14,282 nt of DNA from an archaeon (GCA_043819075.1 JBDRFE010000020.1:1-14282); one strand, 5' to 3'. Shown: positions 9,239 to 14,282, counted from the first letter of the stretch. A program made the numbers and translations. Notes: a model not told the origin generated them from the letters alone.

Positions 9239-9808
9239 TTAACTCCATCTGCAGTAGTAATTCCAGTCCCGGCATTCAAAGTCTTCTGGTTTTCCACTGC
9301 ATTCAGTTTCTTTTTCAGGGCATTCGTCCATCAAGTCATTGAAAGAAAAAGCTTTTTCCCCAAGCTTGTATGTTATCAGCCTTCCAATTTCTTGTTTAAC
9401 TTTTTCAAACTGTTCCTGAGAGTAATTAACTAAGGTAACTGTTTTTCTTTCCCCGTTTGCTTTAATGCTTATTTTTGTGAATCCTCCATCCATTACAAAA
9501 GGGTCTTCATAGTTTTCATTTAAAGAAAAAAAGCTGTTTAATACAACTGCATCAAAAATTTTTTTTCTTTCTGATTCGCTTACAGTGAACTCGTATTTTT
9601 TTGTTAAGCTTGTTTCAATTGTTTTTTCAAACACTGCATTTCCTTTGCTGTCAATTTTAAGTTCATAGTGACCCCACTCTAAATGTGTTGCTCCGCTGCT
9701 GTATTCGACTTCAAAGTCTTCTGGAAGATTTTTTGGGGGCTCTGGCGGCTGGAAAAGGCAGCCAAAAAAGAGGACAAGCAAAACCAGAACAAAAGCAATT
9801 TTTTTCAT
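9239..9808 (-). CDS. Putative lipoprotein with Cys-rich C-terminus
   Basis: MKK-hydrophobic-LFFGC lipobox-like signal, Pro-rich linker, L.IDSKG...Y.DP.VMDGG core, four C-terminal Cys. Confidence 0.8.
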   Translation of the reverse strand: MKKIAFVLVLLVLFFGCLFQPPEPPKNLPEDFEVEYSSGATHLEWGHYELKIDSKGNAVFEKTIETSLTKKYEFTVSESERKKIFDAVVLNSFFSLNENYEDPFVMDGGFTKISIKANGERKTVTLVNYSQEQFEKVKQEIGRLITYKLGEKAFSFNDLMDECPEKETECSGKPEDFECRDWNYYCRWS

Positions 9809-10117
9809 CTGATTAAATTAAGTCTTTCTGGTATTTAATTTTTTCTTCTGTTTTTATTAATTTGATGCAGTCCAAAAGCAAAAACATTTTTTGTTGCGCA
9901 AGCCAAGAAATCCAAACAAGCCTCTTATTAGGGACGTCTTTACATATATATGTCATGGAATCAACTGATTTTTTGGGGAAAAAATAATGGACAGCCAGTT
10001 TACTAGAATGAGGAACAGGTCGCTTGCTTTTTCTCCTGAAAAACGTAAAAAAGAGGACCGCAAGAACAGCCTTCTCTTAAGATCAATTTCAATCTGATTT
10101 TAGGTTATTGAAAAAAT

Positions 10118-10135
10118 TTCCGCCTCTTGGGTTTG
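10118..10135 (-). repeat. Degenerate tRNA 3'-end copy (att-like), most distal
   Basis: TTCCGCCTCTTGGGTTTG, 14/18 identical to 14265-14282. Confidence 0.7.
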
Positions 10136-10148
10136 CACAGGAAACTCT

Positions 10149-10277
10149 TTATAATTCTGCTAATTCATTATAGAATGCTTTGTATTTTTTTAGATCTTCT
10201 TCGACTATTTTTTTTATGTCTTTCCATTCTGCCATTGTTATTGGCTCTCTTTTTCCTTTGATTTTTATTTTTTTCAT
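10149..10277 (-). CDS. 42-aa putative antitoxin for the Doc toxin (absent from the ORF track)
   Basis: Hand-translated MKKIKIKGKREPITMAEWKDIKKIVEEDLKKYKAFYNELAEL*. ATG is 4 nt after the doc stop. Amphipathic helical C-terminus. Confidence 0.72.
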   Translation of the reverse strand: MKKIKIKGKREPITMAEWKDIKKIVEEDLKKYKAFYNELAEL

Positions 10278-10281
10278 TTTA

Positions 10282-10644
10282 TCAGCCCTTTCTTGTGTGG
10301 TTTGCAATCCATGTAACTATTTCGTCTAATCGTGTTTTTGGTTTTACTGACCACACCACTACATTAAATCTTGATGTTTCGCCAACCTTTAATTCTTTTC
10401 CATTCAACTTCAAGAAGGCAGTCATTGCCTGAAATGCTGTTCTTTTGTTTCCGTCTGCAAAAGCGTGCCTTCTTGCAATATCCATTAGTAAAGTTGCTGC
10501 CTTTCTGTCTATTCCTCTTGTGTTTGCCACCTTGAAAACAATATGGTCTAAATCTCCTTCGTTTCTAATTATTCCTTTGTCAAATTTTTTGTTTATTTCG
10601 ATTATTGCTTCTTTTGAAAGTGTTTTTGCATAAATCCTTGCCAT
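10282..10644 (-). CDS. doc: Doc/Fic family (death-on-curing) toxin
   Basis: HAFADGNKRTA Doc motif, GIIRNEGDL, KAA.LL..I. Start MARIY at 10644 lies about 25 nt below a TTTAAA box. Confidence 0.9.
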   Translation of the reverse strand: MARIYAKTLSKEAIIEINKKFDKGIIRNEGDLDHIVFKVANTRGIDRKAATLLMDIARRHAFADGNKRTAFQAMTAFLKLNGKELKVGETSRFNVVVWSVKPKTRLDEIVTWIANHTRKG

Positions 10645-10647
10645 GCA

Positions 10648-10672
10648 TAAATTCTGTAAATTACAGAATTTA
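10648..10672. promoter_or_regulatory. Perfect 12-bp inverted repeat (operator) over the doc promoter
   Basis: TAAATTCTGTAA-A-TTACAGAATTTA overlapping TTTAAA (10669-10674). Confidence 0.7.
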
Positions 10673-10702
10673 AACATATTGTTTTTCAGCTAAAAATAGG
10701 GT

Positions 10703-10720
10703 TCCCGTCTCCTGGATTTG
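10703..10720 (-). repeat. Degenerate tRNA 3'-end copy (att-like)
   Basis: TCCCGTCTCCTGGATTTG, 16/18 identical to 14265-14282. Confidence 0.85.
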
Positions 10721-10767
10721 AGAAAAGGTTCTTGGTTTGGGGTTGGAAGTGTGGAGTTTTTCACATC

Positions 10768-11049
10768 TTATCTCCTGTACATATCATCGTGATGGCCAAA
10801 TTTATCAAACATGATGAAATTTTTTTCTTTGAATACTTTAAAAAAGAGCACAAAGCTTTTTGCTACGTGAACTCTTTTGTATTCTTTTAAATCATATTGC
10901 ATATTTTTGTAATGGTCAATTGTTATCTCATCTGAATTAGCTATTTGCTTGATCTTTTTATTAAGTATTTCCACGGTCTTTTTGTCTTTTTTTGCCAGCA
11001 CTCTGATTGTGGCTTTCAATTCATCTGAAAGGTCAAATGAAAAAGGCAT
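10768..11049 (-). CDS. RelE/YafQ-superfamily type II toxin
   Basis: 93 aa, basic; HYKNM.YDLKEYKRVHV.KSFVL.F....FGHHDDMY; abuts the upstream antitoxin (TGA ATG). Confidence 0.85.
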   Translation of the reverse strand: MPFSFDLSDELKATIRVLAKKDKKTVEILNKKIKQIANSDEITIDHYKNMQYDLKEYKRVHVAKSFVLFFKVFKEKNFIMFDKFGHHDDMYRR

Positions 11050-11313
11050 TCATTCGCCTCTGCATAGCTTGTCTAATTCTTTTATGCTCATTTTTCTGAA
11101 GCCGTATTTCTTGATATGTCTGTCACAAGATTCAATCACTTCTCTGATTACCTCTTCTTTGACTTCTTTATCAACAAATTCGTCTCCATACATTTCAGCA
11201 AACTTGTCTAATGCCTCTCCTTTGTCATTTAACCCATATTTTTCCTTAACCACACCAAGCACTCTGCTTGTATAATCATCTATTTTAACATTTATAGAAA
11301 CAGTTTTGCCCAT
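11050..11313 (-). CDS. Antitoxin with N-terminal ribbon-helix-helix-like domain (DUF2683-like)
   Basis: VSINVKIDDYTSRVLGVVKEKYGLNDKGEALDKF then an acidic segment; AGGTGA RBS at 11320-11325; directly upstream of the RelE-like toxin. Confidence 0.8.
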   Translation of the reverse strand: MGKTVSINVKIDDYTSRVLGVVKEKYGLNDKGEALDKFAEMYGDEFVDKEVKEEVIREVIESCDRHIKKYGFRKMSIKELDKLCRGE

Positions 11314-11332
11314 ATAACTTCACCTAATATAG

Positions 11333-11355
11333 AATTAGTTAAACTAATTTATAAA
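11333..11355 (-). promoter_or_regulatory. Inverted-repeat operator plus TATA box of the antitoxin-RelE operon
   Basis: AATTAGTT-A-AACTAATT (11333-11349) abutting TTTATAAA (11348-11355). Confidence 0.65.
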
Positions 11356-11391
11356 CCTTGCCGTCCAGCGTTCCTTTTTCTGAAGAAAAAT

Positions 11392-11409
11392 TCCCGCCTC
11401 AAGGATTTG
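11392..11409 (-). repeat. Degenerate tRNA 3'-end copy (att-like)
   Basis: TCCCGCCTCAAGGATTTG, 16/18 identical to 14265-14282. Confidence 0.85.
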
Positions 11410-11451
11410 CAATTGGGTTGTGGGAGGTTGGATGTTTGAGGTTTGGAGTTT

Positions 11452-11802
11452 TCAGAGTTCATATAATTCCTTTATTTTTTGTTTTACTTCTTTGAGTTTT
11501 TGTTTTGAAATTTTTCCAATTTTGGTTTCTATTAGTTTCTTATAAACTGTTACTGGGTTGTCGGTCATTATTTGGCTTTCAGTTTTTAGTTGTCCATTTT
11601 CTAAATCTTTTGAAGTTAGTAAAACATCGTATTTTGTTTTGCTTCCTCTGGAGGTTATCTTAAACAAGATTAAGTCATCAGATTCTCTGTTAAATTTTGA
11701 ATTGCTTATAACTAATGCAGGTCTTCTTTTCACTCCAATTTGTTCCGAGAACATTAGGTCAGCTACAACAAGGTCTCCTTGTTCAAAATTCAAAGAGTTC
11801 AT
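11452..11802 (-). CDS. mazF: MazF/PemK family endoribonuclease toxin
   Basis: [14 protein letters not shown]....[27 protein letters not shown]. Confidence 0.9.
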
Positions 11803-11986
11803 GTGCGTCTTCTCCTTCTTCTGCCCATCTCTTGTAAGCGTAAAGTCTTAATGGGTCTTTTTCTGATTCAAGCAACTTGGCTTTTTCTTCTATTGCTTTT
11901 CTTGCTATTTCAGTCCACTTAATTTCAGAATGCTTTTTCATAATGTCATGAAGTTCTTTTGGAACAGCCATAGTCATATTAACCAT
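11783..11986 (-). CDS. Ribbon-helix-helix antitoxin
   Basis: [35 protein letters not shown] pattern with an acidic C-terminus; overlaps the mazF start by 20 nt; AAGGTGG RBS near 11991-11997. Confidence 0.82.
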
Positions 11987-12054
11987 TTAACCACCTTAAA
12001 TAAGTAAAATAAGTAAAGTTGTTAAAGTTATCTTTCACTTGGCGTGATTGGAAT

Positions 12055-12102
12055 TCCCGCCTCCCAACACCGTTCTACGGGTGCAAGTCCCGCCGATTTT
12101 TG
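12055..12102 (-). repeat. Split/duplicated degenerate tRNA 3'-end copies (att-like)
   Basis: TCCCGCCTCCC (12055-12065, 11/11 match to 14265-14275) and TCCCGCC-GATTT (12088-12099). Confidence 0.7.
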
Positions 12103-12122
12103 GTAAAATGCTTCTTTTTTTT

Positions 12123-14198
12123 CTATCTGATTTCCTCAAAAGGAGAGGCATACTTTTCAGGTTTGTTTTCTAATAAGTGGATATATTTAATGCCCCCTTC
12201 AGTCTGAAAGTCAATTATTGCTGCCCAATAAAGATCCCTCATTTTTTCTGGGTTTACTCCATATTCACCTTTGTTTAGTTCTTTTTCAAGGTAAATAATG
12301 TAGCCATAGCCATCTATTTTTTCCCACCTGATTTTATTATCTATTTCTTTGTATTCATTGCCTATTTTTTCCATAATAGTCGCTTGGTTCAAGTCTTTTG
12401 GCAATATATTGCTTGGATTTATTACCATTGTATCATTGTTAATAATGTTGACGGATTCGATTGATGGCTGTGGCATGACTATCACCGGGCATACAGAAAC
12501 AAAGCTGTTTTCTATGTAGTAAAAATTGTCTGCAAAAGCAGTTGAAAATTTTTTTGAAAGTAGGTGTTCTCCTTTTATTATTGATAATTCGTTTTCTTTT
12601 TTTAGTTCTATATTCTCTCCACTTGCAGTTAAAAGATATAAATCGTCTTTTAACTTTGCCAATCGGATTATTTCGAGTTCTTTATCATTCATTTTCGCCT
12701 TCACATCTTCTTTGTTTAATTCAAAATTTGAGTGCAAATAAATGTTCAAGGGATAATTTTCTTTGATTGGCAGCGCGCCCTCAAAGGATAATTGCTCAAA
12801 GCCTGTGCTGGAGGAAAGAATGTCATCTCCATGATAATCAAAAGAAAGATTAGAATTTTTGTCTCTGACAAAGAATTCATCTGTTATGCCTTTTGTTGAG
12901 AAGTTGAGGTCATAAGTATATTTTTCTGTTATAATGTCTTTTGACATTTTGCTTCCTTGTAAATTAGCTTCTATCGGATAGCCATTTGCGAGCAATGACA
13001 TTTCTTTCAAATTTAGCTCTTTATCTGTTTCAATTGTTAGCACAGGATAGAATGTTCCCTTGCATCCTAAATATTCTCTGTCAATTTCAAAATTTACTTT
13101 TTTGATTTCAAGTGATGCTGGGGCTTCTTTGTCAGGCGTGATACATCCTGCAAGAGCCACAGTTGCTCCAAGCGCTCCAATTGCAGTAAAAGTGACGATT
13201 TTTGAGAACAAAGACGGTTTCTTTTCAGCTATTTCTTTGCATTCTCTGTTTCCTGCATAAAATGAGCCATAGTTCAAAATAGCTCTTGCTCTACAACCGC
13301 CTCCACACCATTCGACTGCTTCACATTTTTTACACGGTTCTCCAAGCTTTGCATAATCAAATTTTCTAAAACTGTCAAAAAGATTGCTGTTCCAAACAGC
13401 AGAAATTTTTGTTTTTCTGATGTTTCTTACAGAATAAGGAAAAGAAATACATGGTTTTATTTCGCCGTCTGCAGCAACACACAAATGCGACCTGCCGGCA
13501 GTGCATTCAAAGTGGTCATTGTAAGGGCCAAATCCATCATCCAAGAATATTTTTGTTTTGGAATCTTTGTTTTCATTGCTATATTCAATTAAATCAACAA
13601 CATTGTCCAAATCCAGTTTTACGTTGTTTTCTTTTGCCCTTCCACTGTTTTGTGGGAGATATAAATTGAGCCTGTCAAACTCGTTTTCTACGCACATTTG
13701 ATGGGTTATTTCTACTGTTTCAGAATTAGAGTTGCAAACCATCATTGAAGTGCAAGTGATGATTCCATTTTCTCTAAAAAGCTTTAGCGCATTAATTGCT
13801 TTTTCGAATGATTCTCCTCTGTTTAAGTCGTGGCATTCTTTTGTTCCGTCAATGCTGATGGAAACTGCTTTCAAACCACAGGAAGAAAGTTTTTTCGCTA
13901 TCTCTCCTGTTACCAGAGAGCCGTTGGTTATTAGAGTTGTATTCAAGCCAAGAGAATCAGCATGTTTTATTATTTCAAATATATCCTTTCTTGCTAAAGG
14001 TTCTCCGCCAGTAATTGAAAAAAACAAGGCGCCTAAAGAGGCAACATCCTCTAACATTTCTTTAACTTCTGAGGTTGTCAGTTCGTTGCACAGTTTCTTG
14101 CCAGAATTTGAACCGCAATGTTTGCAGTTTAGATTACACTGCCTTGTACTCTCCCATACAAAATGTTTCAGAATATGGGTTTCATTGTAATCAATCAT
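12123..14198 (-). CDS. Radical SAM/SPASM enzyme fused to an internal lipoprotein-signal-like TM segment and a large C-terminal domain of unknown function
   Basis: CNLNCKHC, TGGEP, ITNG, SISIDG; SPASM CTAG...C...DGEIKPC...CKKC....CGGGCRARA...C; then KK..SKIVTFTAIGALGATVALAGC (Cys352) and about 340 further aa. Confidence 0.88.
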   Translation of the reverse strand: MIDYNETHILKHFVWESTRQCNLNCKHCGSNSGKKLCNELTTSEVKEMLEDVASLGALFFSITGGEPLARKDIFEIIKHADSLGLNTTLITNGSLVTGEIAKKLSSCGLKAVSISIDGTKECHDLNRGESFEKAINALKLFRENGIITCTSMMVCNSNSETVEITHQMCVENEFDRLNLYLPQNSGRAKENNVKLDLDNVVDLIEYSNENKDSKTKIFLDDGFGPYNDHFECTAGRSHLCVAADGEIKPCISFPYSVRNIRKTKISAVWNSNLFDSFRKFDYAKLGEPCKKCEAVEWCGGGCRARAILNYGSFYAGNRECKEIAEKKPSLFSKIVTFTAIGALGATVALAGCITPDKEAPASLEIKKVNFEIDREYLGCKGTFYPVLTIETDKELNLKEMSLLANGYPIEANLQGSKMSKDIITEKYTYDLNFSTKGITDEFFVRDKNSNLSFDYHGDDILSSSTGFEQLSFEGALPIKENYPLNIYLHSNFELNKEDVKAKMNDKELEIIRLAKLKDDLYLLTASGENIELKKENELSIIKGEHLLSKKFSTAFADNFYYIENSFVSVCPVIVMPQPSIESVNIINNDTMVINPSNILPKDLNQATIMEKIGNEYKEIDNKIRWEKIDGYGYIIYLEKELNKGEYGVNPEKMRDLYWAAIIDFQTEGGIKYIHLLENKPEKYASPFEEIR

Positions 14199-14264
14199 AA
14201 ATCTATAGTAAGCTTAAGTCATTAAAAAATATTACATTATTCAATGACTTTTGTTATGTATATA

Positions 14265-14282
14265 TCCCGCCTCCCGGATTTG
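14265..14282 (-). tRNA. 3' end of a tRNA (probably tRNA-Tyr) truncated by the window edge, or a perfect att copy of it
   Basis: Minus strand reads CAAAT-CCGGG-AGGCGGG-A, i.e. end of the T loop, 3' T stem, 3' acceptor strand and discriminator A. G72/A73 (implying C1:G72) is the archaeal Tyr identity. No encoded CCA. The anticodon is not visible. Confidence 0.62.

Follow-up and report, generated by a model that had tools for sequence, protein, structure and literature searches.

We analysed the full length of a 14,282-nucleotide contig (JBDRFE010000020.1 of assembly GCA_043819075.1; hereafter the window, contig C20 of genome G000) from an archaeon whose 1.24-Mb genome is assembled in 75 contigs, with 34.6% GC, 90.55% completeness and intron-bearing transfer RNA (tRNA) genes. 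These traits, together with a DUF63 gene, suggest a small archaeon of DPANN type. On its minus strand, a 691-residue open reading frame (ORF), P0001, joins a radical S-adenosylmethionine (SAM) enzyme with a SPASM domain to a large passenger through an internal lipoprotein-type signal (Table 1). This architecture had been proposed from the sequence alone (the original prediction), and we found its parts where they had been placed. The ORF contains zero internal stops; the Radical_SAM model (PF04055) matched residues 16–154 at 100.2 bits against a cut-off of 29.5, the SPASM model (PF13186) matched residues 232–293 at 42.9 bits against 21.5, and seven SPASM cysteines (232, 250, 289, 292, 298, 302 and 320) are invariant in all four fusions described below. 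Past Cys320, lysines at 326–327 and 333 and a hydrophobic stretch precede the lipobox ALAG-C352, whose cysteine codon lies exactly at the predicted triplet. The remaining ~340 residues, foreseen as beta-rich, were predicted to be nearly all beta and matched no Pfam or NCBIfam family (NCBIfam at E 1).

Table 1 Features of the fusion gene and its boundaries in the window
Feature	Position	Strand	Basis
Fusion ORF P0001, 691 aa	12123..14198	(-)	ORF call and orthologous fusions
Radical SAM domain, aa 1-231	13506..14198	(-)	Pfam, motif, tree
CxxxCxxC (C21/C25/C28), then G-S (CxHCGS motif)	14115-14138	(-)	sequence
SPASM domain, aa 232-320	13239..13505	(-)	Pfam and alignment
Internal signal of lipoprotein type, aa 326-352 (basic residues, then a weak helix rich in Ala/Gly, then the lipobox ALAG-C352)	13143..13223	(-)	sequence; helix 328-347 in full-length model
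Lipobox Cys352 codon	13143-13145	(-)	sequence
All-beta passenger (aa 353-691), probably made up of three Ig-like sandwiches	12126..13142	(-)	structure prediction and structural search
Cys379, in 4/4 fusions, low-confidence stretch after lipobox	13062..13064	(-)	alignment and model
Middle Ig-like (IPT/TIG-type) domain, aa 465-556; predicted docking face aa 473-487, 511-524	12531..12806	(-)	structural search and complex model
Cys570 in S-[VM]-C-P linker (aa 553-585 predicted poorly ordered)	12489..12491	(-)	3/3 fusions reaching it
Tyr631-Gly632, possible splice site, predicted beta-hairpin turn	12303..12308	(-)	kept in P0001, P0005 and fragment P0003
Exact copy of 3' 18 nt of tRNA-Tyr, att-like; upstream cassette boundary, contig end	14265..14282	(-)	
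Degenerate att-like copy, 11-nt core; downstream cassette boundary	12055..12065	(-)	

A conserved but rare one-chain fusion

A search for further fusions returned three, with 59%, 43% and 39% identity to P0001. Searching with residues 323–691 recovered one other cluster (P0002/P0005) among 5171 candidates, of which P0005 is a complete 684-residue fusion, 59% identical, on the metagenome locus L002. P0006, found with residues 1–356, is 43% identical over the alignment, truncated by its contig, and retains the helix and Gly-Cys. The fourth, at locus L048 in a metagenome-assembled genome of Ca. Altiarchaeota, is 39% identical over residues 1–595, up to the contig end; it came from a GTDB scan that returned nothing with the two closest fusions as queries and this locus with three. 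A fragment, P0003, matches the last passenger domain. The fusion, its helix and the lipobox cysteine are thus kept in 4/4 fusions across 39–59% identity.

Among 196 genomes of the same order and 215 of the phylum, many of them less than 90% complete, G000 alone carries the fusion. Other long relatives of the enzyme end differently: 70 of 71 assessed stop 27–104 residues past the SPASM motif without a hydrophobic tail, and the remaining one is a glycosyltransferase fusion (of the 73 relatives, two without the anchor motif were left out). No stand-alone passenger was found among proteins of 202–646 residues, among 1.84 billion representatives or in the 215 phylum genomes. Two apparent passenger homologues, a repeat protein (P0004, E 2e-7 over 39 residues) and a match in G038 (E 5.5e-4), were rejected as noise. 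The one-chain fusion is therefore conserved but rare.

That an error of assembly or sequencing merged two genes is scarcely conceivable. The host assembly is fragmented, and positions 13239–13251 are unbridged among the read pieces listed; however, the same junction recurs in three independent fusions, orthologues that refute such an error, a contig of public run X4 is identical over 12935–13238 (0 differences, 0 gaps), and the enzyme and passenger halves have equal GC content at third codon positions (0.32/0.32). No indel occurred within the ORF among the matches listed from four public runs. Because three independent fusions share the junction and a run contig matches, the fusion is genuine and an artefact is excluded.

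Family placement of the enzyme and fold of the passenger

All named NCBIfam families scored the enzyme far under their cut-offs: AhbD came first, with 156.6 of 500 bits, and TIGR04133 came eighth, with 131.2 against 425 (135.7, 133.9 and 132.9 bits in the other three fusions). In a tree of 29 rows, built after 14 long or redundant rows were dropped and leaving out PqqE and one order-level radical SAM enzyme (regular-expression anchor absent), three fusions clustered together (100/100) outside a splicease-like group (96/95), and the fusions and the splicease/TIGR04133 group lay on one side of a 92/89 branch. The CxHCG motif occurs in 14/14 sequences on the fusion–splicease side versus 0/29 others. 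Approximately unbiased (AU) tests on the reduced set, with the fourth fusion added, rejected a grouping of the fusions with TIGR04133-type enzymes (p-AU = 0.0077) and with AhbD/NirJ-like enzymes (p-AU = 0.032); a grouping with PlpX-type enzymes was not rejected (p-AU = 0.054).

By bit score and tree test alike, we rejected membership both of the AhbD/NirJ haem enzymes and of TIGR04133. The original prediction had compared the gene to the TIGR04133/TIGR04134 radical SAM/lipoprotein system, and membership of that system fails on the passenger side as well: no NCBIfam match appeared at E 1, the hhalign probability for TIGR04134 was 0.3% and Tyr-Gly-x-Pro is absent, while control lipoproteins scored 207 and 139 bits. 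What survives is kinship, with the fusions sister to the whole splicease/TIGR04133 group and not members of TIGR04133. Judged by its sequence, the enzyme appears to be a maturase-type member of the splicease/TIGR04133 radiation, in none of its named families.

Comparison with known systems brings out what is shared and what is not. The TIGR04133/TIGR04134 pair (NCBIfam hypothetical equivalogs from Bacteroidota and Treponema) likewise combines a radical SAM/SPASM enzyme bearing CxHCGS with a lipoprotein that has a weakly hydrophobic signal, but does so in two genes where the fusion has one chain; TIGR04134 lipoproteins carry Tyr-Gly-x-Pro right past the lipobox, whereas the fusion passenger lacks this motif and is unrelated. 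Spliceases are described as excising tyramine at XYG sites (PMC11414181, PMC11002830, PMC11626197, PMC10849128), and by analogy the Tyr-Gly-x-Pro of TIGR04134 would be a splicease-type signature. They (PlpX/TIGR04103, TIGR03913, RhaX) are the nearest characterised enzyme group in the tree and act on peptides and proteins. Their substrate, however, is a separate short precursor, whereas the fusion lies outside their clade and has a folded 340-residue passenger with no clear XYG core. TIGR04133-like enzymes occur in 3 of the 196 same-order genomes (208–224 bits), each with a small upstream Tyr-Gly gene. As a side observation, candidate archaeal splicease systems, in which the gene for a TIGR04133-like radical SAM enzyme neighbours one for a small membrane protein or peptide that repeats Tyr-Gly motifs, lie at L005:951-1382, upstream of 2520 in L006 and upstream of 1372 in L014.

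A seven-cysteine SPASM domain with an open AuxI site is shared with the thioether synthases CrpC (Methanococcus voltae) and QhpD, which are described as cross-linking cysteines in large proteins (PMC13692751); the likeness to CrpC is drawn from its description, not from direct comparison. Both use a precursor-recognition element (RRE) and a separate Cys-rich substrate, whereas the fusion has no RRE, two passenger cysteines and a covalent connection through an export signal. Borosins, in which a methyltransferase is fused to its own core peptide, also place enzyme and substrate on one chain, but with another enzyme class and chemistry and with no export signal or folded passenger. In the open literature, with subscription papers and supplements outside the search, we found no published radical SAM/SPASM–lipoprotein fusion via an internal lipobox. 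Enzyme–lipoprotein gene pairs and spliceases are already known.

A model of residues 352–691 built from three sequences had a mean pLDDT (predicted local distance difference test score) of 57.8 and was nearly all beta. The segment 465–556 best matched an IPT/TIG-type immunoglobulin (Ig) sandwich of a Bacteroides surface protein (Z 9.0, near the level that the structural search tool calls common; root-mean-square deviation 3.3 Å, 84 aligned residues). Domains 1 and 3 were modelled only within the longer chain and their folds are barely tested, and the passenger is probably three Ig-like sandwiches. Foldseek searches of the PDB and of viral models gave weak Ig-type matches alone (TM-score ≤0.20). 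A PDB sequence search with the passenger profile gave nothing under E 0.28, atlas look-ups gave no passenger match (0.76; TM-score ≤0.37) and placed the N-terminal part in generic radical SAM/SPASM clusters, and Rfam gave no match at E 0.1.

The passenger has diverged more than the enzyme, with a three-way identity of 0.19 versus 0.38–0.42, and its best-conserved windows are residues 476–487 and 559–572. It has two cysteines only, Cys379 (4/4) and Cys570 (3/3 fusions reaching it), both in low-confidence stretches. Tyr631-Gly632 is present in 3/3 sequences reaching it and Tyr646-Gly647 in 2/3, both in predicted beta structure; two Tyr-Gly pairs in 340 residues, compared with 0.8 expected from 36 host lipoprotein-like proteins, are not beyond chance. 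The aligned fusions have no conserved Tyr-Gly at the place past the lipobox that it occupies in TIGR04134.

Signal, modelled contact and proposed fate of the passenger

We next considered whether residues 326–352 resemble an export signal of this host. The best 19-residue Kyte–Doolittle mean is 1.89 in P0001 (residues 334–353), and the full-length model (pLDDT 43) was used solely for the helix call. The sequence L-A-G-C352 fits [LVI][ASTVI][GAS]C, the other three fusions read LAGC, TSGC and MPGC, and Gly-Cys at the lipobox (4/4), G-C[IV] and an acidic, Pro-rich tether are kept while the helix sequence drifts. Among 1403 host ORFs of at least 100 residues, 34 have N-terminal signals ending in xG-C, followed mostly by I, T, L or V, and the LAG-C-I-T-P of the fusion fits this pattern. 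The hydrophobic regions of the four fusions are nonetheless weaker than all 34 host signals (means of 1.44–1.89 versus 2.0–3.51) and richer in small residues (43–71% versus 14–36%). Three TIGR04134 signals fall within the range of the fusions (1.44–1.84), being bacterial and so not a like-for-like control. The charge pattern around the helix is positive-inside. An internal start yielding a separate lipoprotein was rejected, as comparison of the fusion sequences revealed no conserved in-frame start before the helix.

The host also encodes lipoprotein machinery. A DUF63 gene lies on contig C74 (171.8 bits); of 14 controls, three, all euryarchaeal, were positive in this search too. The proteins aligned as AliA in the PMC12462473 supplement are DUF63 proteins; because DUF63 is the AliA family, the host has this lipidating-enzyme family. 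Lipoproteins are described as prevalent in DPANN archaea (PMC12462473), with most lipidation assigned to AliA (bioRxiv 10.64898/2026.03.08.710431). Thus, the predicted lipobox-type internal signal is supported by a cysteine kept in 4/4 fusions, by its match to host xG-C signals and by the host DUF63/AliA. Like lipoproteins of the archaeal AliA/AliB pathway, the fusion has a lipobox cysteine that fits host signals; unlike their N-terminal signals, its signal is internal, 325 residues past the start, and weaker than every host signal found. TatC was not found in the 90.55%-complete genome and the signal has no twin arginine, so that Sec is the likely export route. SufBD was likewise not found in this genome, and an IscU/NifU-type scaffold (NifU_N) was. 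Two side observations touch these subjects: a 2109-residue ORF on contig C22 has another internal lipobox-like segment at residue 1241, and the NifU_N match (C75:7708-9210) is in two pieces ~1.1 kb apart in one 507-residue frame, the pattern expected of an intein or an inserted domain.

We modelled the enzyme (residues 1–325, 40-row alignment, three 4Fe-4S clusters and SAM) in complex with the passenger (residues 353–691, four rows). The interface score ipSAE was 0.73, compared with 0.01 for the best of three controls; the calibration mark for this score, reached by 116/157 solved complexes and 2/215 mismatched pairs, holds only roughly here. Runs agreed in at least 36% of contacts, with a partner pLDDT of at least 60, and the confident contacts join enzyme residues 2, 7–9, 53–58, 82–86 and 110 to the face of the passenger listed in Table 1. 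The model supports docking of the middle Ig-like domain on the enzyme. Such contact would require both halves on the same side of the membrane, either before export or with no export at all.

Most likely, the gene is a self-contained unit in which the enzyme would grip its passenger and alter it before export. Taking all chemistries together, we put the probability that the enzyme modifies its own passenger at about 0.55. The original prediction that the enzyme acts on its own lipoprotein or signal region gains support in this respect from the fusion in 4/4 cases and from the complex model, and this support does not extend to site or chemistry. In the proposed sequence of events, the radical SAM/SPASM enzyme would be made first and load its Fe-S clusters in the cytoplasm, as is established for the family, with the host IscU/NifU-type scaffold; the weak internal signal would probably keep the passenger from being exported at once, and the middle Ig-like domain, as modelled, would bind the enzyme. 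The enzyme may then use radical chemistry to modify a flexible passenger segment, with Cys570 or Cys379 as the most likely centre and a thioether cross-link as one example. We favour cysteine because the passenger has two invariant ones and because CrpC is an archaeal enzyme with a seven-cysteine SPASM domain; Cys-centred or other non-Tyr-Gly self-modification is, on its own, a tentative reading that falls somewhat short of even odds. The passenger would leave via Sec, Cys352 would be lipidated by AliA/DUF63 and the signal either cut or kept as an anchor. The end result would be a surface protein anchored by lipid on the outside and an enzyme tethered inside. In family terms, it is possible, if not quite an even bet, that this is a new maturase branch made as a one-gene polyprotein in small archaea, which docks an Ig passenger instead of using a leader or RRE, gives it in cis a new modification, of the backbone or centred on cysteine, and hands it to AliA.

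Several points weigh against this reading. The complex score expresses how confident the model itself is, and was obtained with our own alignments and ligands, outside its calibration. The passenger interface is identical in three fusions at 7/13 positions versus 38/230 elsewhere (P = 0.003), in a test that depends on the alignment used in the model, and identity shows no conservation on the enzyme side (2/15 versus 116/305). The confident contacts omit Cys379, Cys570 and Tyr631, and the two cysteines are equally simply explained as a disulfide in an exported domain. The best NCBIfam score goes to AhbD, the seven-cysteine SPASM is common and not diagnostic, and in a 43-row tree the fusion–splicease branch is weak (60/89), the value of 92/89 requiring that 14 rows be dropped. 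That a weak signal delays export is an extrapolation from bacteria, and there are four fusions in all, two of them cut by contig ends.

It is rather unlikely that the enzyme works inside the cell on another substrate (a membrane protein, lipid or cofactor) and the passenger is an unmodified adhesin or sensor with a Cys379–Cys570 disulfide, the fusion serving to anchor the enzyme and couple the amounts of the two. The resemblance of the passenger to an ordinary surface Ig-like protein, the positive-inside charges and the haem-type AhbD/NirJ family scores would all fit, but after export the membrane would bar the modelled contact and its conserved docking face, the AhbD-like grouping was rejected, the cassette moves as one gene, and no candidate neighbour substrate is common to the window, L002 and L048. 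A wholly cytoplasmic protein, with the weak helix leader-like or vestigial and the Ig domains a recognition module standing in for an RRE towards a substrate in trans, we consider unlikely. A permanent enzyme–Ig contact would account for the complex model, no RRE is present in the protein, and the weakness and small-residue content of the hydrophobic region set it apart from the host signals; against this stand the G-C[IV] lipobox and tether kept in 4/4 fusions despite helix drift, the host AliA/DUF63, and the equally weak TIGR04134 signals, with which such weakness fits a signal coupled to a radical SAM enzyme.

Splicing of the passenger is a further form that modification of the enzyme's own chain could take. 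Here the enzyme, as a divergent splicease, would cut at Tyr-Gly (Tyr631 or Tyr646) and leave a beta-ketoamide, and the signal helix would also serve as an activating leader helix, for which the activation of spliceases by engineered C-terminal leader-helix fusions, described in PMC11414181, offers a precedent. The enzyme's sister position, the CxHCG motif, the PlpX-type grouping that was not rejected, the upstream Tyr-Gly genes beside the three nearest same-order TIGR04133-like enzymes, and the recurrence of Tyr631-Gly632 and, less fully, Tyr646-Gly647 speak for it. We nevertheless regard it as quite improbable, given fusions that lie outside the splicease clade, the lack of a conserved Tyr-Gly after the lipobox, and Tyr-Gly pairs that are not beyond chance in number and lie in predicted beta structure.

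Genomic setting and meaning of the fusion

The fusion cassette is bounded by the two attachment (att)-like tRNA-Tyr copies of Table 1, and more tRNA-Tyr 3'-end copies lie at 11392, 10703 and ~10118, between toxin–antitoxin-type cassettes. Positions 10100–14282 and loci L063–L067 form arrays of integrase-less cassettes (Doc-like, a RelE-like pair, a MazF-like pair, lipoproteins) with decaying tRNA-Tyr 3' copies, and six of eight family relatives carry 2–5 att copies, compared with none in a reversed control. Contigs of public runs join the att sites in other orders, with cassettes skipped or reordered; because of these differing orders we regard the array as mobile, and it behaves like an integron-like, tRNA-anchored system. 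The original prediction had also placed the fusion in the tRNA-proximal, presumably newest, cassette position, a placing borne out only in part. The window does end in a tRNA-Tyr 3' copy; on contig C30, however, where the tRNA-Tyr is intact, an integrase-like frame comes after it, and in a relative (G017) an 11.4-kb integrase element fills the slot after tRNA-Tyr.

The other fusions have different surroundings. At L002 the orthologous fusion lies upstream of tRNA-Asp among metabolic genes, and at L048 a gene resembling aminoacyl-tRNA synthetases and a thioredoxin-like ORF precede it; the labels of these neighbours come from sequence motifs rather than from a scan for families. The window, L002 and L048 share no neighbour, which is what a self-contained unit would lead one to expect.

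We noted four further features of these regions. At 12052–12095 the att copy runs into a different tRNA-like T-arm, whose sequence recurs as a loose end past position 11400 in each of the four runs; this points to a second family of sites or to the captured end of another tRNA. Just past the last att copy, 9239–9808 encodes a DUF6438 lipoprotein whose signal is typical of the host. An intergenic A/T-rich palindrome, repeated on many contigs and often close to tRNA genes, lies at 1899–2051. Downstream of the fusion in L002 (12238–13620), an intron-bearing tRNA-Asp is followed by a XerA-like recombinase and cargo lipoprotein genes.

The fusion offers one self-contained gene with which to probe what the uncharacterised radical SAM/lipoprotein systems do to surface proteins, and to test whether a lipobox lying inside a chain, after 325 residues of cytoplasmic enzyme, can be lipidated and processed in an archaeal cell. 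Since its enzyme is sister to the spliceases but its passenger lacks the Tyr-Gly core usual for them, the fusion may bring a new chemistry to bear on a folded protein. A maturase able to recognise a small Ig domain would also be a candidate protein-engineering tag. If the proposed reading is true, a radically modified cell-surface protein would be travelling as a single mobile cassette.

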